From contig OX638351.1 in NCBI GenBank assembly GCA_951813565.1, positions 2,592,001 to 2,656,000 of the forward strand: a DNA stretch of 64,000 nucleotides. Reading direction: 5' to 3'. Positions 2,518 through 53,298 of the stretch are shown here, one piece after another. Position numbers and translations under genes: made by a program. The notes below the pieces were generated by a model. It saw only the letters and a list, made by a program, of their open reading frames with translations. It ran no database searches and was not told the origin of the DNA. The DNA is from an uncultured Poribacteria bacterium (GTDB lineage: Bacteria > Poribacteria > WGA-4E > WGA-3G). Within the stretch, counting starts at the first letter, position 1. The number at the start of each line of letters is the position of its first letter.

Positions 2518-4347
2518 TTAGATGTAATTTTCAATTTTAGATTCCAGTTCAAAAACTTGGAAAGGTTGTCCCTGGACCTTGTTGAATCCGACAGCATCAA
2601 TAAGATATTCACTTCGAATCAATTGACGGAGATGACCGGTATTTAACTCAGGAATTAACACGGTTTTGAATCGGTTGAGGATTTCGCCTAAATCGCTCGG
2701 AAACGGATTGAGGTGACGCAAATGAACATGACCAATTGCGCAACTGTCTTCAAGTTTATTTTCAACCACAGTCCTAATTGTTCCAAAAGTGCCACCCCAT
2801 CCAAGCACAAGCAGGTCACCCTCCTGTGCACCAAAGATTTCCGTGGGAGGAATTTCATCTGCGATACGTTTAACTTTTTCTGCTCTAATACTCACCATTT
2901 TCTGATGATTTTCAGCATCATAACTCACATTCCCTGTTATGTCCGACTTTTCCAAACCACCGATGCGATGCTCAAGTCCGGGGGTACCAGGCTTTGCCCA
3001 GGGTCTTGCGAGCGTATCAATGTCTCTTGTGTAAGGTTCAAAACCATTCACATCGGTTCGGAAATTGGGTTCAATTTTTCGGAGATCCGCAACATCGGGA
3101 ATCTGCCAAGGTTCCGCACCAAGCGCGATATAAAGTTCCGAAAGGAAGATAACAGGAGTTCGATATTTTACTGCGATTCGGCATGCTTCATAAACTGTGT
3201 CAAAACAGTCAGTGGGACGACATGCTGCAAGAATAGGAATAGGGGATTCTCCGTTTCTACCGTAAAACATCTGCAATAGGTCTGCCTGTTCTGTTTTTGT
3301 CGGCATTCCTGTTGAGGGACCAGCTCTTTGGATATTGCAAACAACAAGCGGTAATTCTGTAATCATAGCAAGGTTAATTGCTTCAGATTTGAGGGCAAGC
3401 CCTGGACCACTACTGCCGGTCACACCAAGTGCACCACTAAAAGCGGCACCGATAGCAACCCCAACAGCAGCAATTTCGTCCTCCATCTGCATTGTCACAA
3501 TGCCAAAGTTTCGATAATTTGCTAAACCATGAAGGATATCACTTGCAGGTGTAATCGGATAACTTCCGTAAACCAGCTGTAATCCAGATTGATGTGCAGC
3601 AGCCACAAGCCCCAAAACAGTGGACGTATTACCTGCAATATTACGATATTTTCCAGGGGCAAATTTTGCTGGCTTCACTTCATAGGAAGTCGCAAATTGT
3701 TCTGTTGCTTCGCAATAGGTATTGCCAGCTCGGAGTGCTAAGATATTCGGTTCTATGAATTGCGGATATTTGGCGGCAAACCTGCTCTTAATCCATCTTA
3801 TAGTGTGATCCATCGGGCGGCTGTATAACCATAAGATCATACCAAGTGCAAAAAAGTTTTTACACCGATCCATTTCTTTAGTACCAAGGTCTGTCGATTC
3901 AAGTGTGTTTCGAGTGAGTTTAGTCAAATCAACAGGGAAAACCTGATATTTTGTCAGCGAGTCGTCCTCTAACGGATTTTCAGTATAACCAGCAAGACGT
4001 AAGTTTTTACGTGCAAAATTATCGGAATTGACAATCAATATACCGTTAGCCTTCAATTTATGGAGATTGACTTTTAACGCGGCGGGATTCATCGCTACGA
4101 GGACATCACAAGTATCACCAGGGGTATGTATGGTTTCACTGGAGAAGTGTAATTGGAAGCCTGAGACCCCAGCGAGCGAACCTGCGGGGGCTCTAATTTC
4201 AGCAGGGTAATCGGGCAACGTGGCGACATCGTTCCCGATAATAGCGGAGGTTTCTGTCATCTGCGTTCCGATTGTTTGGGAACCATCGCCAGAGTCCCCT
4301 GCAAACAGAACTGTTGCCGCTTGAATTTGCTCTACTTGCTTACGCAT
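2518..4347 (-). CDS. korA: 2-oxoacid:ferredoxin oxidoreductase alpha subunit (gamma-alpha fusion)
   Basis: AGDSGDG, YPAEIRAP, YPITPAS, EDEIAA, QRAGPSTGMPT. Confidence 0.93.
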   Translation of the reverse strand: MRKQVEQIQAATVLFAGDSGDGSQTIGTQMTETSAIIGNDVATLPDYPAEIRAPAGSLAGVSGFQLHFSSETIHTPGDTCDVLVAMNPAALKVNLHKLKANGILIVNSDNFARKNLRLAGYTENPLEDDSLTKYQVFPVDLTKLTRNTLESTDLGTKEMDRCKNFFALGMILWLYSRPMDHTIRWIKSRFAAKYPQFIEPNILALRAGNTYCEATEQFATSYEVKPAKFAPGKYRNIAGNTSTVLGLVAAAHQSGLQLVYGSYPITPASDILHGLANYRNFGIVTMQMEDEIAAVGVAIGAAFSGALGVTGSSGPGLALKSEAINLAMITELPLVVCNIQRAGPSTGMPTKTEQADLLQMFYGRNGESPIPILAACRPTDCFDTVYEACRIAVKYRTPVIFLSELYIALGAEPWQIPDVADLRKIEPNFRTDVNGFEPYTRDIDTLARPWAKPGTPGLEHRIGGLEKSDITGNVSYDAENHQKMVSIRAEKVKRIADEIPPTEIFGAQEGDLLVLGWGGTFGTIRTVVENKLEDSCAIGHVHLRHLNPFPSDLGEILNRFKTVLIPELNTGHLRQLIRSEYLIDAVGFNKVQGQPFQVFELESKIENYI

Positions 4348-4421
4348 CAGTGTTTAGCCTTTTTATATGCAATTTATAAGGGTGGTCCACAAAGTCCACC
4401 TGTAAAAGACTTCGTCCATTG

Positions 4422-4961
4422 TCATGCTCCTTCTCGTGCTTTCAAAGCATCACGCACCGGATTGGAGGGCAGTGTTAATACCTCCTGTGGAAAATACTCA
4501 ACGAGATAAGAGATAACATCGCGAATTGATACCATGCCGATAGGGTGTTGGTGTTCATTAACAATCGGCAAGTGTCGAAAACCGCCTCGTGCCATATACA
4601 ACACAGCTGTATCCAACATATCTTCTGGGTTTGCTGTTTGCGGATCCGCCTTCATGAATTGCGTAACAGGAATTTGCGTTAGATCACCTATCTGTTTGTT
4701 TAAAACTTTTCGCAATACGTCGCGTTCACCAAAAATACCACGAAGAACACCATCTTCCACAACGGATGCAGCGCCAATATGGTGTTCAATTAGCAAATCA
4801 ATTGCGTCCTGCATGCTTGTAGTAATGTCAATCGTCACACAAGACCGCATCAAGTGTCGGAGTGGCACCTGAATCTCACTTACTTTTAACGCTTTAAGAG
4901 GCGCCTCCGCATCTTTATCCATCTGTGCTAATTCTTCATCAATTGCATGGTCATAAAGCAT
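4422..4961 (-). CDS. CBS domain pair protein
   Basis: Two CBS repeats (GIFGERDV; FRHLPIV...GMVSIRD). Confidence 0.88.
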   Translation of the reverse strand: MLYDHAIDEELAQMDKDAEAPLKALKVSEIQVPLRHLMRSCVTIDITTSMQDAIDLLIEHHIGAASVVEDGVLRGIFGERDVLRKVLNKQIGDLTQIPVTQFMKADPQTANPEDMLDTAVLYMARGGFRHLPIVNEHQHPIGMVSIRDVISYLVEYFPQEVLTLPSNPVRDALKAREGA

Positions 4962-4963
4962 AG

Positions 4964-5401
4964 TTATGCGCCTCCTTCCTGATTCTCAATAAATATAGCG
5001 ACGTGGTCTAAAATATCCCGTGTTGAAATCAATCCAACTGGAAATTCTTGATTTTGGTCATCCCAAATACAAAGGGGGACATGCCTGAAATGTCCGAGAT
5101 GCATTAGATTTAAAGCAAAGGCAATCGGGTCGCTGGCACGTAACGATTCGGGGTTTGCTGTCATGATTTCTTCAACCTTGACACCTGCAGGTTCTAACCG
5201 TTTACCACACACATGAACGAGCAGGTCACGATCAGTGAGAATCCCGACAAGTCGTTGTTCCGCATCAACAACAAGGATGCATCCGAATCCCTGTACTTGC
5301 ATGATGTCAATGGCATCTGATACTGGAGAACCAACTTGGACGGTGGCAGGTTGCTTGTAACCAAGCGTGCTAATCGGTAACGATAATGTTCTCGCGTCCA
5401 T
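4964..5401 (-). CDS. CBS domain pair protein
   Basis: GILTDRD; FRHVP...GLISTRD. Confidence 0.88.
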   Translation of the reverse strand: MDARTLSLPISTLGYKQPATVQVGSPVSDAIDIMQVQGFGCILVVDAEQRLVGILTDRDLLVHVCGKRLEPAGVKVEEIMTANPESLRASDPIAFALNLMHLGHFRHVPLCIWDDQNQEFPVGLISTRDILDHVAIFIENQEGGA

Positions 5402-5540
5402 CGTATAGACTCCTTGATGTTAACGTCAAAAAATAGGGTTGGGTTTCCTACTGTCCCTTATTTAAAGGATACTATATTTACTACGAATTTGCAAGAATAT
5501 TTTGGTGCAGCACTATTGGGTGTAAAACTGCAAATACAGA

Positions 5541-6488
5541 TTAATTTTTTAACACTGTCGTAACTGCACGCGAAGAAGGAGACCCCCACCCTGGAACAAC
5601 CATACTCCATCTTCCTGCCGGCCCGCCAGCCACCATCAGAAGCAGGTCATCTTCCGAATATCGCTTTGTTGTCTCAGCGATGTAGCGTCGCACCTCTTCT
5701 TTGCTAAAGCCGTTTGCTGAAATCGTTTTCGCGTGTTCAATTCCGATAACGATAAGTGTTTCACCGCTGCTGTTGCCGGGAGCAGAAATGTTCTGACAGA
5801 TCGTATTGAGAATTCCTTCCGCTGTGTTACTGCCGTGATCGTTTATACTCTGCGGGCCTGCACCTGCAAAAACGGTCACAGTGCTCTCATCTGCCTCAAA
5901 ACCACGCTCAACATGGAATGGATTCCATGGGTTTTCCTCTTCTTTTTCAGCTATACAGCAGGTATATTTGCCAACATGTCCAAAGGCAGCGCGGTCTAAT
6001 TCTCCGGGTAGTGCCCCACCAATGTTTGTACAGATGAGACGGACTGCTCTGCCGATAGTTGCGTTTGCACGCCATCCCTGCCCGAAAAGATTGAAGCCAT
6101 CATTAATGTCTAATGCTTTCCTGACAGGACCGTTTACTACCAACATAGGAGCAACATGCGATGTCGTAACCTGTACGCCGTGTAGATTAAATTCCTCGGA
6201 GGCCATCGCTTCTACAGCAGCCAGAACAACCGGTAGATACGTTGGTAGACAACCTGCCATAACTGCGTTAATTGCTATTCTTTCAATCGTCGCCCTGCCC
6301 CATTTTGGTGGGACCGATGTGATTAATTCCTCTGGTGAGCGCTCAGTACCACCAAGCATTCTCTCAACACGTTCAGGTGTTGGTGGAACAACGGGAAGAC
6401 CATCAGTCCATTCGTTTTCATAGCAAGCCTCAATTGGGTCAACCTTCTCGTCAATAGAAACCTGCCTGGCGTGCCATTCTTGTGCCAT
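5541..6488 (-). CDS. Conserved hypothetical protein (WTDGLPVVPPT family)
   Basis: 315 aa ORF with RBS AGGAGG. Motifs WTDGLPVVPPT, AINAVMAGC, RANATIGRA. Confidence 0.75.
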   Translation of the reverse strand: MAQEWHARQVSIDEKVDPIEACYENEWTDGLPVVPPTPERVERMLGGTERSPEELITSVPPKWGRATIERIAINAVMAGCLPTYLPVVLAAVEAMASEEFNLHGVQVTTSHVAPMLVVNGPVRKALDINDGFNLFGQGWRANATIGRAVRLICTNIGGALPGELDRAAFGHVGKYTCCIAEKEEENPWNPFHVERGFEADESTVTVFAGAGPQSINDHGSNTAEGILNTICQNISAPGNSSGETLIVIGIEHAKTISANGFSKEEVRRYIAETTKRYSEDDLLLMVAGGPAGRWSMVVPGWGSPSSRAVTTVLKN

Positions 6489-6681
6489 GTCTGCCTCCTT
6501 GCAGATGAGATTGATATGTTCTCTTGGAACATGTTATTATGTTAGCATAGACTTTATGGTTTGGCAAGAGACAATCTGCCACAGAACAACGCGTAGATAA
6601 GGTTTACTGTTGATTAAAAGCCATTCTGTAATAACAACTAATATCCAATTGAATCGAAATCGCATCGTTGATTGGAAAAAT

Positions 6682-7554
6682 ATGTCAGAACAAAGCAATA
6701 CATCGCTACAAAATAATAGCGAATCTACATTAGCAACGACACCTCTTAAACCGATGGGATTTGGGGAAATTCTGGACACAACATTTAGTCTCTATCGGAA
6801 ACATCTTACGCTATTTTTGGGACTTGTCGCATTTTCGGTCTTTGGGGAGCTCGCAGTACATCTTTTTACGGATTTTTCTGATTTCTTCTTTTCCCGTTAT
6901 CTTCTATTGGGAATAGGAATGGTCATATTTTCAGTCACTTTCTCCATAATAGGTATAGGTGGAATAGTAATTGGAACTGGTGCAACTTATCTGAATGAGG
7001 ATATAACAATCCGTTCAGTCTTGCAGCAAACAATTCAAAGGTTTTGGCAATTGCTGGGTTGTTTTTTCGTTTGGTCGTTAGTTGTAGGTAGTTTAGCAGT
7101 TACGATCATCGGTATACCGTTTGCAATCTTTTTTGCTGTCCGATGGGGATTTTTCATTGGAACAGTGATGTTGGAAAAGCCTGTGGTTAGCACACCTTTT
7201 AGGCGGAGTGGTCAACTTGTTAGTGAGATGTGGTGGCAGATGTTTGGAATGTTACTTGCGATCTTTTTGTTTAGCACACTTGTTCACGCAATATTTGAAA
7301 TTTCTATCGGATTCATCCTTATTTTATCAAACCTTGGTGGTGAAATCGACTTCATTGATATTCTTGAATGGGGGCTTTTCGGAGAATCTTTTGAGAACAA
7401 CACATCACTTTTTTACGCGATTTCGCTCGTTATACATCTACTTGTCTATGTAATATCGTTTCCAATTTGGATCATCGGTATCACCCTTCTTTACTATAAC
7501 CAACGTATTCGTAAAGAGGGTTTTGATATTGAAATGCAGGCACGGGATACCTAA
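6682..7554 (+). CDS. Integral membrane protein (GDPD-membrane-domain-like)
   Basis: LKPMGFGEILD N-terminal motif, several hydrophobic segments, C-terminal LLYYNQRIRKEGFD. Confidence 0.75.
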   Translation: MSEQSNTSLQNNSESTLATTPLKPMGFGEILDTTFSLYRKHLTLFLGLVAFSVFGELAVHLFTDFSDFFFSRYLLLGIGMVIFSVTFSIIGIGGIVIGTGATYLNEDITIRSVLQQTIQRFWQLLGCFFVWSLVVGSLAVTIIGIPFAIFFAVRWGFFIGTVMLEKPVVSTPFRRSGQLVSEMWWQMFGMLLAIFLFSTLVHAIFEISIGFILILSNLGGEIDFIDILEWGLFGESFENNTSLFYAISLVIHLLVYVISFPIWIIGITLLYYNQRIRKEGFDIEMQARDT

Positions 7555-10949: not shown

Positions 10950-10985
10950 CAAATCAACGGTATGAATGCCATTTAGGCATTCCCC
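10950..10985 (+). repeat. 36 bp AATCAA-hairpin micro-element (class A)
   Basis: CAAATCAACGGTAT-GAATGCC-ATTTA-GGCATTC-CCC. Removing it restores the palindrome GCGCGTTT-ACA-AAACGCGC. Confidence 0.8.
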
Positions 10986-10997
10986 GCCTACCGTTTA

Positions 10998-11010
10998 TGC
11001 GTAAGTCCTG
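10998..11010. mobile_element. Solo IS701-type terminal repeat TGCGTAAGTCCTG
   Basis: Identical to the right end of the IS701 remnant at 13032-13044. Confidence 0.75.
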
Positions 11011-11012
11011 AT

Positions 11013-11249
11013 GGTATTGAAGCTGAACCATGGGCAGCACAACCGTTTGCAACCCTAAATATTCTCGCCAATGCAATTGCGAAAGCACAATCAACAGATT
11101 CAGATGCAATTCGGGGTGCCTTGGCACAAACCAGCCATTTTCCAACGATTTTAGGTCCTTTCTCTTTTGATCCCTACGAAGAGGCAATCTATGAAAATAT
11201 AGAAACAATTGTTCTCACCGTCAAGGGCGGAGTCCTGCAAAACTTTTAG
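11013..11249 (+). pseudogene. C-terminal fragment of a LivJ-like ABC substrate-binding protein
   Basis: Startless frame GIEAEPWAAQPFATLNILANAIAKAQSTDSDAIRGALAQT..FPTILGPFSFDP..., truncated at the IS end. Confidence 0.7.
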
Positions 11250-11251
11250 TT

Positions 11252-11419
11252 TATAGTGAAATCCATAATTATTTACACACTACGAATCAACGCCAAATGC
11301 GCGTAAGGCATTTAGCGGGTTCGGTTTCCTAACCGAACTGGTGTTTATTCAGTCTCATAGATGCGGTTAGGAAACCGCATCTACCGGGGCGTGTGCACAT
11401 ATTTTTAGGTTTTACTATA
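11252..11419. mobile_element. MITE with TATAGT(G/A)AA ends (IS630-like) carrying REP palindromes
   Basis: TATAGTGAAATCCATAAT...ATTTTTAGGTTTTACTATA. Internal hairpins GTTCGGTTTCCTAACCGAAC and AGATGCGGTTAGGAAACCGCATCT; a micro-element at 11283-11316. Confidence 0.7.
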
Positions 11420-11425
11420 AGTATA

Positions 11426-11779
11426 CTAAAGTTTGGACAATTTTTGTTCAGTGATAGTTGAGTTTTCGACGGAGAATCTATTTTTCTGCAAGTTTCTCAT
11501 ATCATTGGAACCCCGCGAAAATGTTGCACTCCAGCGGAGTGCTATGTCTATAGAAAACATTATGCACACATTCTCACACTCCAGCGGAGTGCTATGTGTC
11601 AGTTCACTACATACCGCTCTGCTGGAGCGGGAGATGACGGTAAATACTGTTGCTATAAACATATTGCTCTGCTGGAGCAAAGAGGGTTTCTGTTTTGTGT
11701 GTTGCGTCAGAATTGTTAACAGATGTATAAACCGATCTCTTATATTCAACTCACGTATGAAAAATTGTCCAAACTATAG
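11426..11779. mobile_element. MITE with 20 bp TIR carrying four GCTCC/GGAGC REP-like palindromes
   Basis: TIR CTAAAGTTTGGACAATTTTT / AAAAATTGTCCAAACTATAG (1 mismatch). Flanked by the direct repeat TATAAGTATA (11416-11425, 11780-11789). Confidence 0.8.
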
Positions 11780-11789
11780 TATAAGTATA

Positions 11790-12167
11790 GCAAGCGTTCC
11801 AATCATAAACTACATCAACGGGCATTTGGCAAAATAACCGAGTTGATAACCTACAAAGCGAAATCTTTAGGCATCAAAGTTGTATCAATAGACGAGGCAT
11901 AAACCTCACAAACTTGTCCGAAGTGTGGCACCCGAAAGAAACCTGCCAACCGAAACTACACTTGCAAATGCGGTTTTCAGTATCACAAGGATGGTGTAGG
12001 TGCGATAAATATTCGGCAAAAGTATCTGGGCATTTCGGTGTCCCTGTAGTGGCGGACATGACACCGCCCGTCGGATTTAGTTTTGAAGTCCGATGTTGCT
12101 TCGTCTGATCGGAGAATGTTCCTAAAAGGAACAAAAGAACCCACTCCTTTAGGGTGAGAGTATGTCA
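11790..12167 (+). pseudogene. tnpB: IS200/IS605-family TnpB C-terminal remnant with transposon right end
   Basis: KLHQRAFGKITELITYKAKSLGIKVVSIDEA*TSQTCPKCG...CKCG..HKDGVGAINI (zinc finger + RuvC-III), with an in-frame stop and a frameshift. Followed by the right-end motif AGAACCCACTCCTTTAGGGTGAGAGTATGTCA. Confidence 0.88.
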
Positions 12168-12355
12168 GATATACGCTTCCAAAGAATCAACCCTAGAGCA
12201 AAAGTAGGGATTGCGATAGCAAATAAATACAAGATAAGAAAAAAAACAACCGTAGATTGTTTAGGAGATTCCGCGACCCGATCGCAAACGATTTCAAACG
12301 CACTATATAACAGAAATAACATTACCAAAAACACAAGAATTAAGAAGATTGTCAT
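12149..12355 (-). CDS. Small hydrophobic protein with two predicted TM segments
   Basis: 68 aa with two hydrophobic stretches, AAGGTG upstream. The stop codon lies inside the TnpB element end. Confidence 0.45.
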   Translation of the reverse strand: MTIFLILVFLVMLFLLYSAFEIVCDRVAESPKQSTVVFFLILYLFAIAIPTFALGLILWKRISDILSP

Positions 12356-12445
12356 TATTCACCTTTGACTTCCGCCAGTCCCGCACTCAAGTTTCAAGAA
12401 ATGCACCGACCAAAACGCATCATGCCAGTATTTGTTACACTCAAT

Positions 12446-13044
12446 CAGGACTTACGCATTATTATAAAATTATGTTATACTCTTCTATTATGACTACATT
12501 TACACACTCTCAAAAGAAGCATAACTTATATTCCGATTATTGTCAGTTTTTGATAGCAAGTTTCACTAATTGGACACAAACCTACTTTGCTGAACGGACA
12601 GAAAAATGGAGCCACGATCAACTCAATCGTTTTTTGAGAGAAACACGACAAGGAAAACGGGTGCACATCAATTAGTTTCCAAAAGGACATCAAGTGAAGT
12701 TGTTCCGGATAGCGTCCTCTAACGGACACACGGTATATATCGCCACAAACGATTTATCTCAATCAGATGCGGATGCCACAATCCAAGAATGTCCAGTGCG
12801 TTGGAAGATTGAGCAATTTCATCGTGAGATCAAACAAGTCACTGGTATTGGTAAATGTCAATGTCGCAAGTTGCGTGCGCAAAGAAATCATACTGCGTGT
12901 TGTTTTCAAGTATGGGTCTGTTTGGCGCGCACTGCCCGGGCAGTTGGTAGAACAATTTATGATCTTAAAGATAGCTTATTGGATGATTATTTACGACATC
13001 AACTCTCAAATCCTTCAATAATCTTCAAGACTGCGTAAGTCCTG
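12446..13044 (+). mobile_element. IS701-family element, internally deleted, with transposase pseudogene
   Basis: Perfect 13 bp TIR CAGGACTTACGCA / TGCGTAAGTCCTG. N-terminal YCQFL...SHDQLNRFL is joined directly to C-terminal RWKIEQFHREIKQ.TG..KCQCR..RAQRNH. Confidence 0.88.
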
Positions 13045-13065: not shown

Positions 13066-13231
13066 GTCCGTCGGGTAGAAGCGGTAGCGAAACCCGACTT
13101 TTTATAGTGTCATGTCCAAATCAACACCAAATGCGCCAAATCAAGAAATCAACGCTACAAATCATGGCGAATGCCAAAAGCGCATTCGTCTTTAGGCATT
13201 TGTCGGGTTTCGCAAGCTCTACCCGACGGAC
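13066..13231. repeat. REP-like dyad interrupted by nested micro-elements (13117-13204)
   Basis: GTCCGTCGGGTAGAAGCGGTAGCGAAACCCGAC ... GTC^GGGTTTCGCAAGCTCTACCCGACGGAC. Confidence 0.8.
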
Positions 13232-15044: not shown

Positions 15045-15205
15045 AATCATCAACCCATTTAAACCTTGTTATAGTAAGGCATGAAAGCATAATCATTAAC
15101 TAAAAATTGAAAAAATCATCAACCGAATCATCAACCGCTGCAAACATTGATATAGTATGGGTTCATAGCGTAATCATCAACAAAAATCGTTAGAAATCAT
15201 CAACC
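15045..15205. repeat. Two 81 bp tandem units with six AATCATCAAC boxes
   Basis: Boxes at 15045, 15091, 15114, 15126, 15172, 15195; spacing 46/23 repeated in both units. Confidence 0.8.
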
Positions 15206-15225
15206 AATACATATCTCCTATTAAT

Positions 15226-18082: not shown

Positions 18083-18655
18083 GTGAACGTTCCAAAAAAC
18101 GGGTATGAACAGGCTGAGATCTCCCTTGCTCCAATAAAAACCGATATGACATTGGAAGAATTCCTTCAAAATGACATAGAGGGATATGAATACGTTAAAG
18201 GAGAATTAGTGCCGATGCCAGATGCATCAATTTTACATGGAGGAATTAGTGTTAGAGTTATTCGGTATTTAGACTCACACGTGCATCAAAATCAGTTAGG
18301 AGAGGTATATACTGCAGAAACGTCCTTTCGGGTAGGTGAACGCGTAATCAAACCGGATGTTGCTTTTGTTTCCACAACGCGTATACCTGAAGACAAAACT
18401 AAGGGTTTCCCAATACCACCTGACCTCGCTGTTGAAGTCATTTCTCCTACGGATATATTATGGAATGTTTCGGAAAAAGTACAAGCATACCTTGAGGCTG
18501 GTACTCGAATGGTTTGGGTGATTGATCCGGTCATGAAAACCGTATCAGTTTTTTACCCTGACAAAGCTTTTAAAATATACAAGCGGGATGACACGCTCAC
18601 AGGAGAGGATGTCGTTGAAGGGTTTTCTTGTCCGGTAGCACAACTATTTGAATAG
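18083..18655 (+). CDS. Uma2-family endonuclease 1
   Basis: YEYVKGEL, PDVAFV, PDLAVEVISP, Y..AG...VWVIDP. GTG start after AAGGAG. Confidence 0.9.
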   Translation: MNVPKNGYEQAEISLAPIKTDMTLEEFLQNDIEGYEYVKGELVPMPDASILHGGISVRVIRYLDSHVHQNQLGEVYTAETSFRVGERVIKPDVAFVSTTRIPEDKTKGFPIPPDLAVEVISPTDILWNVSEKVQAYLEAGTRMVWVIDPVMKTVSVFYPDKAFKIYKRDDTLTGEDVVEGFSCPVAQLFE

Positions 18656-18693
18656 ATTCTGAAATTGCAAAATTATGTATGGAGGAATTAAAA

Positions 18694-19263
18694 ATGCATC
18701 CGCAAGACATCAACGAATTTGCACATGAAACTCTGCCACCAGAAAACGTTTCAATGACTTTAGAAGAGTTTCTTGAGAGCGATTTAGAAAGATTTGAATA
18801 TATCAAAGGAGAATTGATACCGATGCCGCCAACCTCTATTGAACATGGCAATATTAGTTCTAATGTCCAGTGGTATTTGCAATCGCATGTTCGTACAAAT
18901 CAACTTGGTCGTGTCTATACTTCAGACACCGGTTTCCGTGTTGGTGAACGGATACTGATGCCTGATGTCGCTTTCATTTCAACATCTAAATTTCCTGATG
19001 ATCAAAGATCAATATTTTTAATCCCACCAGAACTCGCGATTGAAGTGATTTCACCAACAGATTCCCTGACTAAGGTTGTTGAAAAGGCTCTTGCTTATCT
19101 GGAAGCAGGAACACTTCTTGTCTGGATCATTGAACCTACTGGAAAAACAGTAACAGTGTTTCGTTCGGAAACAGATATAAAAACACTCACACGCAAAGAC
19201 ACGTTCACAGGAGAGGATGTCGTTGAAGGGTTTTCCTGTCCAGTAGCACAACTTTTTGAATAG
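18694..19263 (+). CDS. Uma2-family endonuclease 2
   Basis: Same motifs (PDVAF, PELAIEVISP); RBS GGAGG. Confidence 0.9.
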   Translation: MHPQDINEFAHETLPPENVSMTLEEFLESDLERFEYIKGELIPMPPTSIEHGNISSNVQWYLQSHVRTNQLGRVYTSDTGFRVGERILMPDVAFISTSKFPDDQRSIFLIPPELAIEVISPTDSLTKVVEKALAYLEAGTLLVWIIEPTGKTVTVFRSETDIKTLTRKDTFTGEDVVEGFSCPVAQLFE

Positions 19264-19304
19264 ATAGATTCTAAAACACAGCAAATTAACTGCGGAGGAA
19301 TAAA

Positions 19305-19874
19305 ATGCATCCACAAAACATTAACGAATATGCACAAGAATCTCATTCACCAGAAAACTTTTCAATGACTTTGGAGGAATTTCTTGAAAGCGATTTAGAG
19401 GGATATGAGTACGTTAAAGGAGAAATAATACTGATGCCAGCTGCATCTGCGGAACATGGAATAATTTGTGCAAGGTTTTTTCTGTGCTTGGGTTTGTATG
19501 TGCGTGAGAATCAATTCGGCGAGGTCGTTACCCCAGACACAGGTTTTCAGGTAGGGGAGCGCGTCCTGAAACCGGACATTGCTTTTATTTCTTCAGCACA
19601 ATTGCCAGACGATCTGAGCAAAGCATTTCCAGTGCCGCCAGACCTTGCTGTTGAGGTTATTTCACCATCAGATGCTTTCCAGCGTGTGATTGACAAAGCA
19701 TTCGCTTATCTGGAAGCTGGGACACAAATAGTGTGGGTGATCGAACCCAAATCGCAAACAGTAACGGTGTTTCGCTCAGAAACAGATATTACAACACTCA
19801 CACGCAAAGACACGCTCACAGGAGAGGATGTCGTTGAAGGATTTTCTTGTCCAGTAGCACAACTTTTTGAATAA
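19305..19874 (+). CDS. Uma2-family endonuclease 3
   Basis: PDIAF, PDLAVEVISP; RBS GGAGG. Confidence 0.9.
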   Translation: MHPQNINEYAQESHSPENFSMTLEEFLESDLEGYEYVKGEIILMPAASAEHGIICARFFLCLGLYVRENQFGEVVTPDTGFQVGERVLKPDIAFISSAQLPDDLSKAFPVPPDLAVEVISPSDAFQRVIDKAFAYLEAGTQIVWVIEPKSQTVTVFRSETDITTLTRKDTLTGEDVVEGFSCPVAQLFE

Positions 19875-19883
19875 GGAGAATTT

Positions 19884-20642
19884 ATGAAACTTGGCTTAGT
19901 AACCTATAATATGGCAAAAGATTGGGATATTCCGACAATCATTGAACGGTGTTCGGAAACAGGATTTTCTGGTGTGGAGTTAAGGACAACTCACGCGCAT
20001 GGCGTTGAAGTCAACCTCTCTGCAAGTGAACGGGCAGCCGTAAAACAGCAGTTTGAAGATTCACCTATTGAGATTGCAGGCTTGGGTTCCGCTTTTGACT
20101 ACCATTCAACTGATCAAGATGCAGTTCGGCAGAATATAGATGGTACGAAAGAATACTCTCAGTTAGCAGCAGATGTCGGCGCGCCGGGTGTAAAGGTGCG
20201 TCCAAATGGTCTCCCCAGTGAAGTTCCAGTGGAAAAGACGTTAGAACAGATTGGATTAGCATTGCGGGAATGTGGAGAATTCGCTGCAGACCTCGGCGTG
20301 CAGATTCGACTGGAAGTGCACGGTGGCGGCACCTCCGAACTCCGACATATACGAACTATTATTGATGTTGCCGACCATGAGAACGTATACGTGTGCTGGA
20401 ATTCCAACTTCGGCGAAGTGGAAAACGGTTCTATTCAGAATAACTTCAACTACGTAAAAGGGAAAATCGGTTTAGTGCATATTACGGAACTGCATCGGCG
20501 TGAATATCCGTGGCGAGAACTGTTCACCTCGTTGAAAGAGTCTGGATATTCTGGCTATACTTTGGCAGAAATTGCAGGCAGTTCTGATCCTGTCCGAGTC
20601 ATGAATTTCTATCGGGCGTTATGGGAAGAATTAAATAGGTGA
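19884..20642 (+). CDS. Sugar phosphate isomerase/epimerase (xylose isomerase-like TIM barrel)
   Basis: GFSGVELR, LEVHG, VHI, GYSGY..AE. Confidence 0.85.
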   Translation: MKLGLVTYNMAKDWDIPTIIERCSETGFSGVELRTTHAHGVEVNLSASERAAVKQQFEDSPIEIAGLGSAFDYHSTDQDAVRQNIDGTKEYSQLAADVGAPGVKVRPNGLPSEVPVEKTLEQIGLALRECGEFAADLGVQIRLEVHGGGTSELRHIRTIIDVADHENVYVCWNSNFGEVENGSIQNNFNYVKGKIGLVHITELHRREYPWRELFTSLKESGYSGYTLAEIAGSSDPVRVMNFYRALWEELNR

Positions 20643-21167: not shown

Positions 21168-21240
21168 TCCCCCATAGCTCAGTCGGTAGAGCAGATGGCT
21201 GTTAACCATCGTGTCGGCGGTTCGAGTCCGTCTGGGGGAG
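21168..21240 (+). tRNA. tRNA-Asn (GTT)
   Basis: Acceptor TCCCCCA/TGGGGGA, anticodon arm GATGG-CTGTTAA-CCATC, T-loop TTCGAGT. CCA is not encoded. Confidence 0.97.
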
Positions 21241-33840: not shown

Positions 33841-33920
33841 ATTTGGACAAATTTCACTTGAAAATTTTCCTTAACAATTATATCATAAAAATTACAAATA
33901 GTGTAAAAAAAGAGGTATGC

Positions 33921-35093
33921 ATGCACATATTGCACACTGCCGATTGGCATATCGGGCAAAAACTCCACGAACGCCAACGGCTTGATGAACATAAAGAATT
34001 GCTAAATTGGCTTCTACACACAATCCAAGAACATAAAGCTGAACTTCTCCTCGTTTCAGGTGATATTTTTGACACCTCCCTCCCGTCAGCAGAAGCAACA
34101 AATCTCTATTATGAGTTTCTTTTTAACCTCTATGAAGAAACCGATGCATACGCGGTAATTATTGCTGGCAATCACGATTCTGCACGACACTTGGAAGCCC
34201 CCAGGGAATTCCTCAAAATGGGTAGGATCCACGTCGTTGGACTGGTAAGAGAACCGACTGAATGTGTCTTAAATATTCCAGACGAAAACCCTCGCGTCTC
34301 TGTTGCAGCTGTGCCGTATCTTTCTGAAAACGAACTCCCACACGTCTCCTATGAATCCGATATAGAAAAGAACGAACGGTATCGAGAACGACTCAAAACG
34401 TTCTATGCGGATTGTGTGTCGCACATGCCAGCGGATCTCCCGAAGATTTTGATGGGACACCTCTTTGTCCAAGGTGGAAATGTAAGCGATTCTGAACGAA
34501 ATATCCAAATTGGTGGTGCTACTGCTATTCACGCGGACGACTTTCCTGACGGTGTGAATTATGTTGCGCTTGGTCATCTCCACAGACCCCAGACGATAGA
34601 AGGCAGCGCTTATCCGATCCGATATTCAGGATCACCTATTTCCCTAAGATTCAACGAAACAAATTATCGCAAAAAGGTGTATCTGTTGGAACTGTCTGAC
34701 GATGGAACATTGATACTTGATGAAGAAATTGAGATTCCCATTTTCAAGCGATTATGTACCGTCGCGGGTGACGAAAACACCGTTTTATTTCAAGCAGCGG
34801 CTGAAAATTGGGATGGGAAATACATTCAAGTCAAATTAAAATTAGAGGCTGTAGAAACCGGTATCAACGACAAAATTCGGCAAGCGTTTGCAGGACGTGG
34901 TGGTGATGTTCTGAGTGTAGAAATTGAGATGCCAGAAGCAAAACGCGATATTAATATCTCTGTTGAAGACATGAAACGTCCCGAGGAAATCTTTGAACAA
35001 TTCCATAAGGCAAAACATGATGGCAAACCACCCGATGAAACATTAGTACAAACGTTTAACGAATTACTTCAGATGGTTGAGAAATCTCAATGA
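33921..35093 (+). CDS. sbcD: Exonuclease SbcCD subunit D
   Basis: HTADWHIG, GDIFD, AGNHDS, ALGHLH, YSGSP. Confidence 0.95.
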   Translation: MHILHTADWHIGQKLHERQRLDEHKELLNWLLHTIQEHKAELLLVSGDIFDTSLPSAEATNLYYEFLFNLYEETDAYAVIIAGNHDSARHLEAPREFLKMGRIHVVGLVREPTECVLNIPDENPRVSVAAVPYLSENELPHVSYESDIEKNERYRERLKTFYADCVSHMPADLPKILMGHLFVQGGNVSDSERNIQIGGATAIHADDFPDGVNYVALGHLHRPQTIEGSAYPIRYSGSPISLRFNETNYRKKVYLLELSDDGTLILDEEIEIPIFKRLCTVAGDENTVLFQAAAENWDGKYIQVKLKLEAVETGINDKIRQAFAGRGGDVLSVEIEMPEAKRDINISVEDMKRPEEIFEQFHKAKHDGKPPDETLVQTFNELLQMVEKSQ

Positions 35094-38000
35094 AATTGTG
35101 TAAACTGAAACTAAAAAACCTAAATAGTTTTCGTGACGAGGTTGAACTTGATTTTGATGAACCTCCGTTAGACGAGGCATCACTTGTAGCAATTACCGGT
35201 CCTACGGGGGCAGGAAAAACAACGTTGTTAGATGCGATTTGTGTTGCACTTTACGGTAAAACACCGCGTTTGAGTGGAACTGGCAGCCAAAATCCGAACT
35301 ATCTCATCAGTCACGGAGAAAAAGAAGGTTTCGCTGAGGTTCATTTTGTCGCAAACGGTACGCGCTACATTGCTGCGTGGTCGGGTAAACTCAAAGCGTC
35401 TCCTAAAGGGAGTTTGTTAAATGCCGATTCTGACAAACTAATTAGCGATAGACTATCTGCACGCGGTAAATCTCTTGGCTCCAGTGAAAACACGGTAAGC
35501 GAAGAGGTGACTGCCATTTTAGGGCTTGATTTTGATGCGTTTAAGCGATCCGTTATGTTGGCACAAGGTGAATTTGCTGCGTTTTTGAAAGCAAAGGACG
35601 AAGAACGGCGCACAATTTTGGAAGCTGCTGCAAATGTTGATATCTACGATGAACTGAAAAGGACATTAAACGATAAGGTGACAACTGTTGAAACTGAATA
35701 TCAGAGTGTTTTACAAAAACTTGAAGCAGTTCCTGAAGCCTCACTTGAACAACTTACGGAAGCAGAAACAGAGCTTGCCAGATTGCAAGCAGAAGCAGAA
35801 AAATTAGGTGGAAAAAATCAGCAAATTCAAACGGAAAAAGAACATGAAACAAAACGTAAAGAGGATTATGAAAAACTACAATCTTCTGAAGAAAATCAAA
35901 AAGAACTTATCAATCAGCAACCGATGATTGACAAACTAAAATCGGAACTTGAGGACGCTGAACGTGCAAACCAACTTCGTGCAGAGAAACAGGTGTATGA
36001 TACCGCAAAATCGAATCATGAAAAAGCAGCAGATGACCTACAAAAGGCTGAAATCGAGTTTACGGATACACAAAAGCAAGTGGAGACTAACCAAGCCAAT
36101 TTTGATAAGAAAGACGAGACTTATCAAACAGCTTTATCCGAGCGTGAACGGAAAATTGACATTTTTAACACTGCAAAATTAGAAGTAAGCCAGGCAGAAA
36201 ACCAATTTGAACAAGCGAATAACCGAATAACTGATAAGAAAAAAATAGACGACCAAATTGAGACAACGTTAAACAAGTTAACTGAGAAGGAAACTCGTCA
36301 AACTGAATTGCAAGAACAAATTGCGGAAGCGCAGACCTTTTTAGATGAAAACCCTCTCCCATCAGATCGGCAGTCACGTCTGAACCGAACAAGTGTTCTT
36401 CTATCAGAACTCAACTCAAAATGCCAACTGCAAAAGGAAAAAGAAAAGGACCAGTCGGAGTCCGAGTTACAAATAGGAAAGTTAAAAGAAAAGTTAAAAG
36501 AATTAACTGAGAATAGGAAAGAACTACTCTTGAAAGAAAAAACTGTAAAGAATTCTCTTAAACAAGCAGAAGCAGAATTCAAAGAACTTCAAGAAAATGG
36601 CACACTTGAGGATTGGCAAAGCCGAAGAGATAATGCAAGAAAAGCGCAACCGATAGCGCAACAGTATGAAAATTTGGTCGATCAACTCGGTGATAAGAGG
36701 GACGATCTCGCGGAATCAAAGGAAAAAATCATTGGACTTGATGAATCCCTTGATAGTCTTAATAAAAAACTTGAGGTTCAATCTCAACTCTGCAAGCGAG
36801 CAGATGCAGAAGTTGAGAAATTAGAAGCAGAAAAAGAATTAGCACTTTTAACAGAACCCGTTAATGCGCTTCGACAGCAGTTAGAGGAAGGGAAACCTTG
36901 CCGCGTGTGTGGTGCTACAGATCATCCCTACGCTGATAAAGTTGAAAGTGAGAAACTACTTGAAAGTATTCTGAAAGCATTAGACGATGCCGAAACAGAG
37001 GCGAAAAAGGCACAGAAGCAGAAGCAAAAATTAGAACGGGATCAAGCACGTCTCCAACAAGATAAATCCCACACCGTTGAACAAGTCGATGAATGTGTTG
37101 CAGAAATAGAAAACCTAAATACCGAAACCGAAGACCTTTGTGCAAAGTGGAAAGAACTCTATGAATCTGCAGACATCTCATTCGAATGGGTTGATGAAAG
37201 GTTTGATGAAGCAGACACTGCGATTGAGAATCTCAACACTACCCAAGAAACTTACAATGAAGTATCCAGCAAATTGAATGAAGTTTCTCATAAACTTGAA
37301 ACCTGTCAAAATAATCTCAATCGAGAAAATGAACTATTGAACGATACAAAACAGGAATTGGAATCTATAACAGATGAGATTGAGGTCTTGAAATTGGACA
37401 TTTCTGATACCGAGAAAGATTTTTGGACTTCAATGCCCGAAGTTTTTCACGGTGTTACGCCAGATAAAGCCGTCAAACAATTTGACGATAAGATCAAGGT
37501 AGTCGATTTACGTGAGCAGGAACTTACCACTAAAAACAGCCGACTTAATGTGCTTAACACCGAAATTCAGAACGACCAACGCGAACTTCAAGACTTACAA
37601 GAACGCCAAAAAGAACTTGAAGCAGAAATTGAACGCTATCAAAACGAAGGCGAAACGTTTATAGATGCTGTTCGAGATAAAACGGGTGGATTGGAATTGG
37701 AAGACGATATCAACGCTGCTATTGATGAGTTAAATGGTGAACTACAGGCGAAAAAGGCTGAACGCGATGAAGCTAAACAACAGTTAGAAAAAAGCCGAAC
37801 ACTATTAACTCAAAAAGAAACGACTCAGAAATTTTGCGAAGAGCAGTTGAAGGAGAATTGCGAAAAGTTTGAGACAGCAGGCGATGCTTACTTGGATAAA
37901 TTGAACAAAGCAGGATTTGAGTCACCTGAAGCACATGACGTGGCATTCCGAGATGAAGCGCAGATACAAGCACTAACCGAAAAAACAGACGCTCATGAGA

Positions 38001-38728
38001 ACGAAAAGCAGCAGCTTGATGTAGAAATTGTAGCGTTGCGGACGCAGTTTGTAGAAGTGCCATTTTCCCCTGAGGTATTAAAACTGATTATATCCCAAGC
38101 AGAAGAAATTGCAGCAGAGATACAAAGCGCACAGGAAAAAATTGGCAGACAAAATGAGAAAATTGACAATCTGAAAGACGATCTTCAAAAACGTGAAAAA
38201 CTTGATAGCGAAGTGCATGCGGCAAAGCAAGAATGGGAACGTTGGAAAAAGTTGCAGGAGATAATTCCTCGAAACGAACTTCGGGATTTTGCATTGGATA
38301 TTATGTTTCAACAGGTCAGCCGTATTGCCAATGTTCAGTTGGCATATTTAACCTCAGAACGTTACCAACTTGATGTAGAAACCATCGGTAAGTTAACCGT
38401 TATTGATCGGTGGAATGCAAATGAAAAACGTCCTGTTGAAACACTCTCTGGTGGCGAATCATTTTTAACGAGCCTGGCACTTGCATTAGCATTATCTGAA
38501 CTCAGCCAAGGTCGCGCACAACTCAATTCACTATTCCTTGACGAAGGATTCGGAACGCTTGATACAGAAACACTTGATATAGCAATCTCAGCTTTGGAAG
38601 GACTTCGCATGCAGGGACGCAGTATCTATCTTATTAGTCATATACAGGAATTGACGAGACGTTTGCCTGTTAAAATCAATGTTAAGAAACGGGGAAACGG
38701 CAGTTCATATATTGAAATTCGAGATTAA
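35090..38728 (+). CDS. sbcC: Exonuclease SbcCD subunit C (SMC-like ATPase)
   Basis: GPTGAGKT, LAQGEF, long coiled coil with zinc hook CRVCG, LSGGE, FLDEGFGTLD. Confidence 0.95.
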   Translation: MKLCKLKLKNLNSFRDEVELDFDEPPLDEASLVAITGPTGAGKTTLLDAICVALYGKTPRLSGTGSQNPNYLISHGEKEGFAEVHFVANGTRYIAAWSGKLKASPKGSLLNADSDKLISDRLSARGKSLGSSENTVSEEVTAILGLDFDAFKRSVMLAQGEFAAFLKAKDEERRTILEAAANVDIYDELKRTLNDKVTTVETEYQSVLQKLEAVPEASLEQLTEAETELARLQAEAEKLGGKNQQIQTEKEHETKRKEDYEKLQSSEENQKELINQQPMIDKLKSELEDAERANQLRAEKQVYDTAKSNHEKAADDLQKAEIEFTDTQKQVETNQANFDKKDETYQTALSERERKIDIFNTAKLEVSQAENQFEQANNRITDKKKIDDQIETTLNKLTEKETRQTELQEQIAEAQTFLDENPLPSDRQSRLNRTSVLLSELNSKCQLQKEKEKDQSESELQIGKLKEKLKELTENRKELLLKEKTVKNSLKQAEAEFKELQENGTLEDWQSRRDNARKAQPIAQQYENLVDQLGDKRDDLAESKEKIIGLDESLDSLNKKLEVQSQLCKRADAEVEKLEAEKELALLTEPVNALRQQLEEGKPCRVCGATDHPYADKVESEKLLESILKALDDAETEAKKAQKQKQKLERDQARLQQDKSHTVEQVDECVAEIENLNTETEDLCAKWKELYESADISFEWVDERFDEADTAIENLNTTQETYNEVSSKLNEVSHKLETCQNNLNRENELLNDTKQELESITDEIEVLKLDISDTEKDFWTSMPEVFHGVTPDKAVKQFDDKIKVVDLREQELTTKNSRLNVLNTEIQNDQRELQDLQERQKELEAEIERYQNEGETFIDAVRDKTGGLELEDDINAAIDELNGELQAKKAERDEAKQQLEKSRTLLTQKETTQKFCEEQLKENCEKFETAGDAYLDKLNKAGFESPEAHDVAFRDEAQIQALTEKTDAHENEKQQLDVEIVALRTQFVEVPFSPEVLKLIISQAEEIAAEIQSAQEKIGRQNEKIDNLKDDLQKREKLDSEVHAAKQEWERWKKLQEIIPRNELRDFALDIMFQQVSRIANVQLAYLTSERYQLDVETIGKLTVIDRWNANEKRPVETLSGGESFLTSLALALALSELSQGRAQLNSLFLDEGFGTLDTETLDIAISALEGLRMQGRSIYLISHIQELTRRLPVKINVKKRGNGSSYIEIRD

Positions 38729-40369: not shown

Positions 40370-40423
40370 AACAGCTATCTATCCGAAACGGACAACGTAT
40401 CGCCATGATATATTTTATTACAT

Positions 40424-40452
40424 ATTATACACTATCATCATACAATTGTCAA
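40424..40452 (-). promoter_or_regulatory. Consensus sigma70 promoter for the iscU-like/iscA pair
   Basis: Minus strand TTGACA-17-TATAAT. Confidence 0.75.
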
Positions 40453-40468
40453 ATCCTACTTTAAGCCA

Positions 40469-40968
40469 GGGTGTGTAAAGTTTTTGTAGAAATCCGCACA
40501 ACTCCTATTGTAGGGCGGGTCTCCGGGGAATGCCAAGAGGCATTCGGACCGTTGATTTGGTGCCTGCCCGCTGCATGGCACGTCCTGCACAGTGGCGGTG
40601 CACAGGGACCCCGCCCATAGGCGTCAATTTAAGCACACAATTACCAGATTGCCTCTTGTGGGAGGGCTTTATAAGCCCGATTTATATGTATTTATCGGGG
40701 TTGAAAACCCGACAAATGCCAAAAAGCAGAATCAACGCCGAGCGCGCGTATGGCACTCGTCGCATTTGGCGTTGATTTGGCAGCATGCCAAACGCGCATG
40801 CTGCGTTGATTCGCTCCCACAAGAGGGTATATCCTTAAATTGACGGCTATGGGGCACCAAATCAACGCTATGAATGCCTGTTGGCATTCCCCGGGACCCC
40901 GCTCTACAGTGGAAAACGCCGCGTAATCATTGCAAATTGAACCTATGTAACCAAAACTTTACACACCC
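40469..40968. mobile_element. 500 bp composite MITE with IS256-like ends
   Basis: Perfect 16 bp TIR GGGTGTGTAAAGTTTT; 9 bp target duplication TTTAAGCCA (40460-40468, 40969-40977). Contains REPs, a nested MITE and five micro-elements. Confidence 0.9.
40616..40851. mobile_element. Nested MITE with IS4-like ends
   Basis: TIR CATAGGCGTCAATTTAAG / CTTAAATTGACGGCTATG (1 mismatch). A second copy is at 42431-42666 and a solo end at 42321-42336. Confidence 0.8.
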
Positions 40969-41067
40969 TTTAAGCCAATTTATAGACATTTATAACATTT
41001 TCAGTTAAATTCTGATATAATGCCATTGCAACTTACACATTAAGAACGAATGGAGGAAAATATAGCA

Positions 41068-42101: not shown

Positions 42102-42254
42102 CAGAGCCATTCAGTTTTCGTGTTTTTCTCAACATTTTGGACACGGTCGCGAGCTGGAGCTCGCTCCCGCTAAATACCATAAGTGTATTTGGCGTTGATT
42201 CACAAGAAGAGACCTTTGGTAACAGAGCAATTGCTGAAAAATTGAATGGCTCTG
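42102..42254. mobile_element. MITE with CAGAGCCATTCA ends carrying a REP palindrome
   Basis: TIR CAGAGCCATTCAGTTTT / AAAATTGAATGGCTCTG. Internal GCGAGCTGGAGCTCGC; a third end-like copy at 42268. Confidence 0.75.
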
Positions 42255-42414: not shown

Positions 42415-42783
42415 GCACAGGGACCCCGCCCATAGGCGTCAATTTAAGCACACAATTACCAGATTGCCTCTTGTGGGAGGGCTTTATAAGCCCGATTTAT
42501 ATGTATTTATCGGGGTTGAAAACCCGACAAATGCCAAAAAGCAGAATCAACGCCGAGCGCGCGTATGGCACTCGTCGCATTTGGCGTTGATTTGGCAGCA
42601 TGCCGGACGCGCATGCTGCGTTGATTCACTCCCACAAGAGGGTATATCCTTAAATTGACGGCTATGGGGCACCAAATCAACGGTATGAATGCCTTATGGC
42701 ATTCCCCGGGACCCCGCTCTACAGTGGAAAACGCCGCGTAATCATTGCAAATTGAACCTATGTAACCAAATATTTACACACCC
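42415..42783. repeat. 369 bp near-identical copy of 40600-40968
   Basis: Colinear, about 8 substitutions by manual comparison. Includes the right IS256-like end. Confidence 0.92.
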
Positions 42784-43702: not shown

Positions 43703-43947
43703 ACGTGAGTTTGATAAATCCCGTAGGGAATCAACACCGAATGCGCCTACGGCATTCGGTGGGGTAGAACGGAAATGGACAATAAAAACAGACCCTAAAG
43801 AGAGGTTGTTGACCCATTTGAGGACGATATTTCCGAAAAAATAAGTGAAACCCAACTCTTTAGGACTCTCAAGACGGTTGAATTGTTGGGTTTCGCTTCG
43901 CTCTACCCAACGGACATCTATATTCATTTTAATTATCAAGTTCACGT
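43703..43947. mobile_element. MITE with IS982-like ends carrying a REP dyad
   Basis: TIR ACGTGAGTTTGATAA / TTATCAAGTTCACGT; 8 bp duplication TAATTATA; micro-element at 43727-43760. Confidence 0.8.
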
Positions 43948-53270: not shown

Positions 53271-53298
53271 GTAGAGGCGGGTCTCCGTGCCCGCCTAC
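53271..53298. repeat. Uninterrupted REP-like palindrome (empty-site reference)
   Basis: GTAGAGGCGGGTCTCCGTGCCCGCCTAC; the same REP is interrupted at 40510-40569. Confidence 0.75.

Follow-up and report, generated by a model that had tools for sequence, protein, structure and literature searches.

Copies of the Unit in the Window

The window analyzed here is a stretch of 64 kb from G000, a Poribacteria genome of 5.43 Mb that is 95% complete; other G-numbers denote comparison genomes. It carries repeated copies of a tagged hairpin, hereafter the unit, together with several larger elements that hold them (Table 1). A pattern describing tag and hairpin matched 11 times in the window, with 0.11 matches expected and a maximum of 1 over 100 shuffles. 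All of the copies listed in a first-pass annotation of the window were present where it had placed them and as it had described them. One decayed copy, at 42168-42201 on the minus strand, had been missed; the orthologous site of G006 also holds a copy.

Neither G084 nor G002 has, at the orthologous site, the MITE in which the copies of the focal interval lie. In G012 the same site is occupied by a cassette with the same ends, different content, and no units. Genome-wide, MITE-like cassettes have the ends of a 24-copy ISKra4 IS and contain REP stacks of widely differing content.

The copy at 13117 had been described as carrying a 54-bp nested insert, which turned out to be a chimera of several units with a CATG-headed sister hairpin among them. 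Such sister hairpins, 28 nt in length, have a class B loop, and ~4 bases are replaced where they are joined after GAAT.

The stretch from 11000 to 13040, in which gene fragments are stacked with a broken DDE transposase and a right end of IS605 type, is absent beside the orthologous gene in five relatives. Genes resembling sbcD and sbcC, of the hairpin nuclease family, are found at 33843-38728, although the sbcC matches score below curated cut-offs; their position 2 kb from the focal cluster is probably a coincidence. A tRNA gene (Rfam RF00005) is located at 21168-21240, a tandem pair of 81 nt at 15045-15206, and three diverged gene repeats of ~610 bp at 18471-19884.

Table 1. Units, carriers, and related features. 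Coordinates are window positions unless a contig is named.
Feature	Position	Strand	Remarks
Class A copy, CA head, bulged stem, terminal G	10950..10986	+	Within REP-like hairpin; looks clean at C^G
Carrier repeat of ~170 bp, multi-copy, MITE-like	11250..11420	.	Approximate limits; holds 11284 copy; many matches in 5 relatives
Class B copy, G head	11284..11317	+	Inside 170-bp repeat
Composite: class B 5' half, repeated tag, class C 5' half, CATG-headed hairpin, shared 3' arm	13117..13205	+	
CATG-headed sister hairpin, 28 nt	13163..13190	+	Joined after GAAT/AAAT
9-bp target duplication of carrier MITE (CTTTAAGCC), left copy	40459..40467	+	
500-bp MITE	40468..40967	.	Terminal inverted repeats are those of the ISKra4-family IS of G000; encloses every copy of the focal interval
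Class A copy	40524..40559	-	Common empty allele has A at position of terminal G
Inner inverted-repeat cassette	40620..40847	.	Two GTGG-REP-like hairpins plus trio of copies
Class B copy, CA head	40710..40779	-	Loop interrupted
Class B copy, AG head	40728..40762	+	In loop of 40710-40779 copy; clean at C^G; 83 exact empty alleles
Class B copy, CG head	40780..40813	-	First of tandem pair
Class A copy	40858..40893	+	One target A missing versus common empty allele
9-bp target duplication, right copy	40968..40976	+	
Decayed class B copy, G head	42168..42201	-	At GTA^GG bond of GTAG-REP
Second trio plus class A unit	42525..42708	.	Block duplication, shift of 1815 bp
Class B variant, A-T closing pair, G head	43728..43761	+	Host TT replaced
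REP allele without element, G at site	53271..53298	-	Minority form
Lipoyl-ligase-family gene	L058:429-1247 = G000:C1:4511528-4512346	-	Carries class A insert

Structure of the Unit

The unit is 33-36 nt long and consists of an AATCAAC tag, a small imperfect hairpin, and a terminal G. The tag, an imperfect stem of 9-10 bp, and the terminal G form an invariant core, and a head of 0-3 nt in front of the tag varies (G, A, CA, and others). The two ends are asymmetric and have no terminal inverted repeats, those seen at 40468-40967 belonging to the carrier. The length of 34-36 nt first proposed applies to 606 of the 619 un-nested copies of G000 when these are counted in the frame of the first-pass annotation. 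Of the 8-nt tag proposed there, the AATCAA portion belongs to the nearly fixed AATCAAC, but the first base often belongs to the target, and the head is variable. In class B hairpins collected without using the tag, each tag position was kept in 138-145 of 147 contexts. The base preceding the tag was A or G in 71 of these contexts each, and the base one further upstream was C, T, or G.

The class B stems covary, as had been noted from the window copies. In 38 distinct copies, both partners vary at 7 of the 11 pairs. Two-sided changes filled 45 cells compared with 13.2 +/- 3.3 in shuffled sets and 1-6 in slid controls, a difference that is inflated by kinship among the copies and by the collecting pattern, in which the tag and some of the stem are held constant. 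G000 contains 14 different fully paired stems. In 33 of the 38 copies the terminal G and the final C of the tag form a pair, which is also present in the predicted folds of both class A and class B. Stem mismatches reading G.T are more frequent on the anti-tag strand (46 versus 14 in G000 and 13 versus 3 in other genomes); as this asymmetry comes from few positions in copies that are not independent, it is a weak hint that the folding strand is the anti-tag strand.

Distribution in the Genome and in Relatives

In total, 909 heads in eight sequence classes were found in G000, and a stricter pattern gave 807 heads in 444 loci. Well-formed copies number 576 and occupy 343 contexts. A fold below -6 kcal/mol follows 558 of the 6935 AATCAA sites of the genome. 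Five control hexamers with 2772-6973 sites gave 11-40 folded sites, and a sixth control, which overlaps the tag, gave 402. ORFs of at least 80 amino acids, nearly all of them short, hold 78 of the 576 copies, with one true in-frame case.

The pattern is present in 94 of 99 genomes of the same family. Two large genera carry it in 37 of 37 (G000 included) and 55 of 57 members, and a third genus in neither of its two. Outside the family 7 of 51 genomes match, with 1-2 matches each. In G150, from another family, one perfect class A copy stands alone (G150:C13:7958-7987) and is put down to transfer or mis-binning. In a GTDB-wide pattern scan, 77 of the 80 loci among the matches listed are from Poribacteria, 2 are from entries named "uncultured bacterium," and 1 is a chance match that is not a hairpin. 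Viral contigs searched for class A gave no matches.

The unit has no match in Rfam, where tRNA alone reached gathering level and positions 40400-41000 gave sub-threshold generic hairpins. No published description of the unit family was found in a search that covered few subscription papers; the supplements of REP surveys could hold related repeats. The family is apparently undescribed so far.

Evidence for Insertion

A gene of the lipoyl-ligase (lipoate-ligase) family contains a 36-nt class A copy, which adds 12 residues, in frame, near the C terminus. The insert is present in G000, G006, and G084; in G053, G002, and G012 the orthologous gene is shorter by exactly these 36 nt. Presence and absence at orthologous sites, on which the first-pass annotation had made its claim depend, are thus observed. 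There is no target duplication here or at the window copies, as that annotation had stated. The flanking codons differ between filled and empty orthologues and so do not reveal the ancestral bases at this site. The copy is a bare insertion in unique DNA and predates the three species that carry it. Two further unique-looking sites gave no clean pair of filled and empty alleles, one being without coverage and the other having shared decayed copies.

The proposal of a minimal structured element that is mobile in trans is supported by these filled and empty orthologues, by the occurrence of the unit in 144 context clusters, and by the lack of an Rfam match. We regard it as very probable that the unit is real and inserts independently. 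Much of the copy number, on the other hand, derives from larger carriers. Units are carried by the ISKra4-type MITE, by the block copy at +1815, and by the 170-bp repeat, so that copy number exceeds the number of insertion events.

Junctions and Target Choice

According to the first-pass annotation, the base 3' of the element is almost always G, often at C^G. CA-headed copies do lie mostly at C^G, with C before the unit in 50 and G after it in 49 of 55 clusters of G000, and in 54 and 53 of 57, respectively, in other genomes. C precedes the unit in only 34 of 51 metagenome class A contexts. G-headed copies are followed by GGG (39, 38, and 34 of 42). The G, although common, is the element's own, and empty alleles have a base other than G at 19 of 35 flanks. 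These are the flanks with a clear majority empty allele among 128 distinct right flanks; 16 have G and 19 have A, T, or C. By eye the 19 fall into approximately nine related host families.

Counts in six host families illustrate the replacement. Their empty alleles carry A or G in ratios of 271/26, 45/0, 19/0, 134/6, 33/0, and 75/0, and in the same order 13, 10, 2, 17, 2, and 7 filled copies end in G; one copy overall keeps the right-hand A. Larger target losses are TT, CT, TA, and GTA. The empty alleles used as reference are paralogous and not ancestral. An automated tally gave a single empty match for 60 of 122 clusters and none for 13, and because this cluster-by-cluster tally is noisy, we used only the family counts and the flank filter. 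Clean insertion at C^G is therefore one outcome, and replacement of target bases, seen at many insertions, is the other. An explanation by clean insertion into rare G-variant targets is disfavored by the occurrence of 0 G variants in four of the families and by the losses of 2-4 bases.

Read on the opposite strand, all 19 replaced-base flanks of G000 take the form C|N (C|T at 14, C|G at 3, and C|A at 2), and several of the C|T junctions fall at a CC|TAC bond. In three hosts in other genomes the fixed junction follows G instead of C. Judged by paralogous empty alleles, one junction is fixed and the other loose. Five different heads are found at one host site.

Clean removal had been said to restore the host sequence at the window copies. 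It gives the commonest empty allele at 10950 (7 empty alleles in G000), at 40728, and for the trio at 40711-40813, but not at 40525, 40858, 42168, 43727, or 11283 (positions as numbered in that annotation). At the 11284 copy, empty alleles read GGTA before the right flank, i.e. approximately 3 target bases have been replaced. The empty allele cited at 53271-53298 does exist but is the rare G form (6 G versus 134 A), which is either a mutation or an excision scar.

A preference for palindromes, also proposed, was not borne out. Site-spanning flank hairpins were found in 19 of 104 clusters and at 16-19% of control sites, so that there is no enrichment in this test, which left out 40 clusters with neighboring tags. 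Flanks are repeats in 62 of 89 cases versus 42-50% in controls. Target preference is limited to a bias of 1-3 nt, with no fixed motif of 4-5 nt. Many of the host repeats belong to the REPs found beside RAYT genes of this genus, some are simple tandem repeats and not REPs, and dozens of unrelated hosts share one common fixed 3' boundary. At loci L006, L007, and L257 short hairpins border a Y1 subfamily; they have loops of 3 nt and a leader of ACAT type, not GTAG, and also serve as unit hosts. Two candidate rules were rejected. One of them, pairing of the final tag bases with the cut site as a guide, accounts for C^G but only repeats the closing pairs of the stem; for the other, self-priming by fold-back, complementary heads occur in just 3 of 14 double-tagged hairpins.

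Search for a Mobilizing Enzyme

The first-pass annotation suggested looking for a Y1/RAYT transposase, IS110 recombinase, or reverse transcriptase (RT) gene flanked by copies. None was found at the loci examined. G000 contains 10 Y1 matches, including IS605 TnpA and RAYTs, as well as two RTs, two cas1 genes, and one tyrosine recombinase match; IS110 (PF02371 and PF01548) gave 0 matches in this 95% complete genome. RAYTs lie at G000:C1:242041-242448, 5070845-5071243, and 3098010-3098354, and an IS605 TnpA at 228440-228796. No autonomous partner flanked by the unit is present among the 10 Y1 loci of G000 or among the 32 genes with unit copies on both sides. Neither the 30 RAYT loci nor the 49 Y1 loci of the genus (2 of them translated out of frame, 1 non-Y1, and 1 cut at a contig end) include one that is regularly flanked. 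RAYT loci across the genus have their own REPs as flanks, with the unit sporadic within those.

In phylogenetic profiles, neither RAYT nor Y1 nor RT tracks the element. RAYTs are present in element-free families (7 of 10 and 18 of 26). RVT_1 is found in 16 of 37 genus members and is absent from the matches in G055, G006, and G017, which have 501, 452, and 368 unit matches. No Y1_Tnp, REP_Tyr_transpos, or RVT_1 match was obtained in G001 (97% complete, 4 contigs) or G023 (92% complete, 1 contig), in which class A is present in 52 and 21 letter-perfect copies, respectively; these copies may be relics.

The likeness of the tag to the TCAA and TTGAT motifs of IS200/IS605 looks coincidental, as had been allowed from the outset, because IS605 left ends follow TTAG or TTAA and carry other hairpins. 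In G000 these ends have a matching AAAC or AAAT before the hairpin, with the boundary set by the extent of shared sequence.

Several other loci of G000 were noted. A Drt4 antiviral reverse transcriptase is encoded at L014 (G000:C1:811749-813284) and scores above the NCBIfam cut-off. At G000:C1:3988991-3996435 an RT gene lies beside cas1 and a 54-repeat array, and units flank cas1 on both sides. A CRISPR-like array of 26 repeats at G000:C1:2830673-2832363 has no nearby cas1 match; the ORF beside it has a start that we take to resemble IscB/HNH. A TnpB-like ORF is present in 30 copies (e.g. 107245-108372) versus 5 copies of IS605 TnpA.

Possible Mechanisms of Movement

The strand, chemistry, and enzyme of movement are what we infer here. 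We tentatively favor a single-strand, HUH-type cut-and-join reaction in trans, carried out by a RAYT/Y1 enzyme or an unrecognized relative. The unit would move as single-stranded DNA, with the enzyme supplied in trans. On the anti-tag strand, a target 3'-OH after C would be joined to the foot of the element hairpin, giving the fixed junction. The tag end would be joined loosely, with a loss of 0-4 target bases and variable heads, and an insertion would look clean where the lost base is G. Every insertion would regenerate a C^G or G^G site, leading to tandem stacks and nesting, and MITEs, REP units, and gene conversion would afterwards copy the stacks as blocks. This reading is favored by the C|N form of all 19 replaced-base flanks, by the many hosts that are REPs of RAYT genes, and by the G.T excess on the anti-tag strand. 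Plain HUH strand transfer is not known to delete target bases, which counts against it, and it is weakened further because no Y1 gene is regularly flanked and because G001 and G023 are without a Y1, RAYT, or RT match. RAYTs in element-free families, the three hosts with a junction after G, and the hosts that are simple tandem repeats also speak against it. E. coli TnpA-REP is described as cutting at C|T, including a CC|TAC site within the complement of GTAG (PMC3333891), and one group-3 enzyme as also cutting CA, or CC with a GTGG guide (PMC8266576).

Possible, if on the unlikely side, is a family-wide host replication or repair activity that patches the tag-hairpin into nicks or stalled forks with no transposase involved. 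An unrecognized nicking enzyme, a primase, a topoisomerase, or template switching could be responsible. Such an activity would suit an element that is near-universal in two genera (37/37 and 55/57) where Y1, RAYT, and RT are patchy, and that is carried by G001 and G023, where none of the three was found. The loose junction, the base loss, and the five heads at one host site would fit as well, as would insertion into non-REP hosts and one coding site. However, no candidate gene was found, the C|T bias at REP feet would be left unexplained, and REPs persist without RAYT, so that genomes lacking the enzyme may hold relics.

Carriers that are well assembled and hold dozens of letter-perfect copies have no Y1, RAYT, or RT match, so the unit could instead be a 33-nt single-hairpin replicon that overwrites target bases at one fixed junction. 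It would then be moved by an enzyme common to the family and distinct from all known classes of transposase, recombinase, and RT. We rate this as unlikely.

It is improbable that the units are passengers only, i.e. that MITEs and REP units spread one or a few old hairpins, which gene conversion then shuffled. The focal interval does lie within an ISKra4-type MITE that is absent from orthologous sites, two inverted-repeat cassettes (crudely paired) hold 68 and 121 of 882 heads, the 576 copies collapse to 144 clusters, and different unit bodies are found at one same host site. Against this, a single-copy gene holds a bare 36-nt unit with no carrier, dozens of unrelated hosts show one fixed 3' boundary, and the tag is conserved while the stem covaries.

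Target-primed copying of a small hairpin RNA into a nick by a reverse transcriptase would make one junction exact and leave the other ragged. The observed junctions, of which one is fixed and one variable, fit this, as do small deletions and heads made of purines, and G000 has the RT beside Cas1 and the Drt4 RT. Such copying is nonetheless quite improbable given that RVT_1 was found in 16 of 37 genus members and in none of the unit-rich G055, G006, and G017, and that a conserved promoter context was not seen.

We are very doubtful of exchange of a small single-stranded circle by a site-specific recombinase (IS110/IS1111 or an integron-like tyrosine recombinase) over a core of 1-2 nt. There is no duplication, the common C or G is readable as a core at clean sites, and IS621 and IS1397 are listed among IS that target REPs (PMC3184786). 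However, G000 has no IS110 match and a single tyrosine recombinase match, core exchange should not lose 2-4 bases, and the tag lies wholly within the unit and is not split over the junctions.

Derivation from a CRISPR repeat, or off-target integration by Cas1-Cas2, is highly improbable: the unit has a length like that of spacers (35-40 nt), presumably resembles one CRISPR repeat type, and has the RT-linked cas1 among the 32 genes with copies on both sides, but the repeats in the three arrays of G000 are unrelated to it, the 151 genomes searched contained no array with the proto-motif (at most 3 matches each), the best Rfam CRISPR hit has an E value of 5.4, and there is no long duplication at the sites. 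Identity with a CRISPR repeat was rejected on finding no regular array that contains the unit and no Rfam CRISPR family match.

Comparison with Known Small Repeats

As far as sequence features tell, the unit would behave like SDRs, SMR-A, and PATEs, is built like a tagged REP, and appears to fall outside each of the families that can be tested. Like the SDRs (small dispersed repeats), it is a very short dispersed unit with presence and absence between relatives. Elhai et al. in 2008 reportedly described precise insertion of SDR5 at a fixed bond of its host motif. The unit is set apart from SDRs in that it is found in another phylum and its target is not HIP1. A fixed 7-nt tag, a covarying stem, and base replacement are demonstrated for the Poribacteria unit. 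The SDRs of Nostocaceae are characterized as very small (~20 bp) and possibly mobile (PMC4390886, PMC2884548).

Tagged REPs (GTAG or CGTC; BIMEs and REPtrons), as outlined in PMC3733652, PMC6006769, and PMC3184786, share with the unit a tag and hairpin of 20-40 nt, an intergenic location, and hundreds of copies. Many junctions of the unit in G000 would also match the C|T bonds, CC|TAC among them, of TnpA-REP/RAYT systems (PMC3333891, PMC8266576), but the three hosts in other genomes depart from them. The tag at the foot of the unit is, however, AATCAAC, not GT[AG]G or CGTC. Unlike REPtrons, the units flank no RAYT, and they interrupt the REPs of several RAYT subfamilies. Unlike the REPIN doublets presented in PMC3116915, they insert singly.

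The PATEs of IS200/IS605 have, like the unit, no terminal inverted repeats, no target duplication, a hairpin near the end, and no coding capacity (PMC3119063). The unit differs in having one hairpin instead of two subterminal ones, no target motif of 4-5 nt, and a loss of target bases, and no similarity was seen to the IS605 ends of G000 (left ends, compared by eye). The same source gives SMR-A of Haloquadratum as an element that makes no duplication, inserts in palindromes of other mobile elements, and has an unknown mobilizer, in all of which it is like the unit; SMR-A is ~110 bp with terminal inverted repeats (PMC3119063), whereas the unit is 33-36 nt and asymmetric.

The means by which SDRs, REP singlets, SMRs, and other tiny bacterial repeats move can be tested with oligonucleotides and a few enzymes in the present case, because there are hundreds of copies, ~100 carrier genomes, a covarying structure, and two junction rules. 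A 52-bp PATE is described as possibly mobile (PMC3119063), and the 33-nt unit is smaller still. Insertion with overwriting of the target would be an unusual signature and, if the enzyme is found, could serve as a compact tool for programmable insertion. Genes also gain in-frame peptides from the units, and short-read assemblies are interrupted by them.
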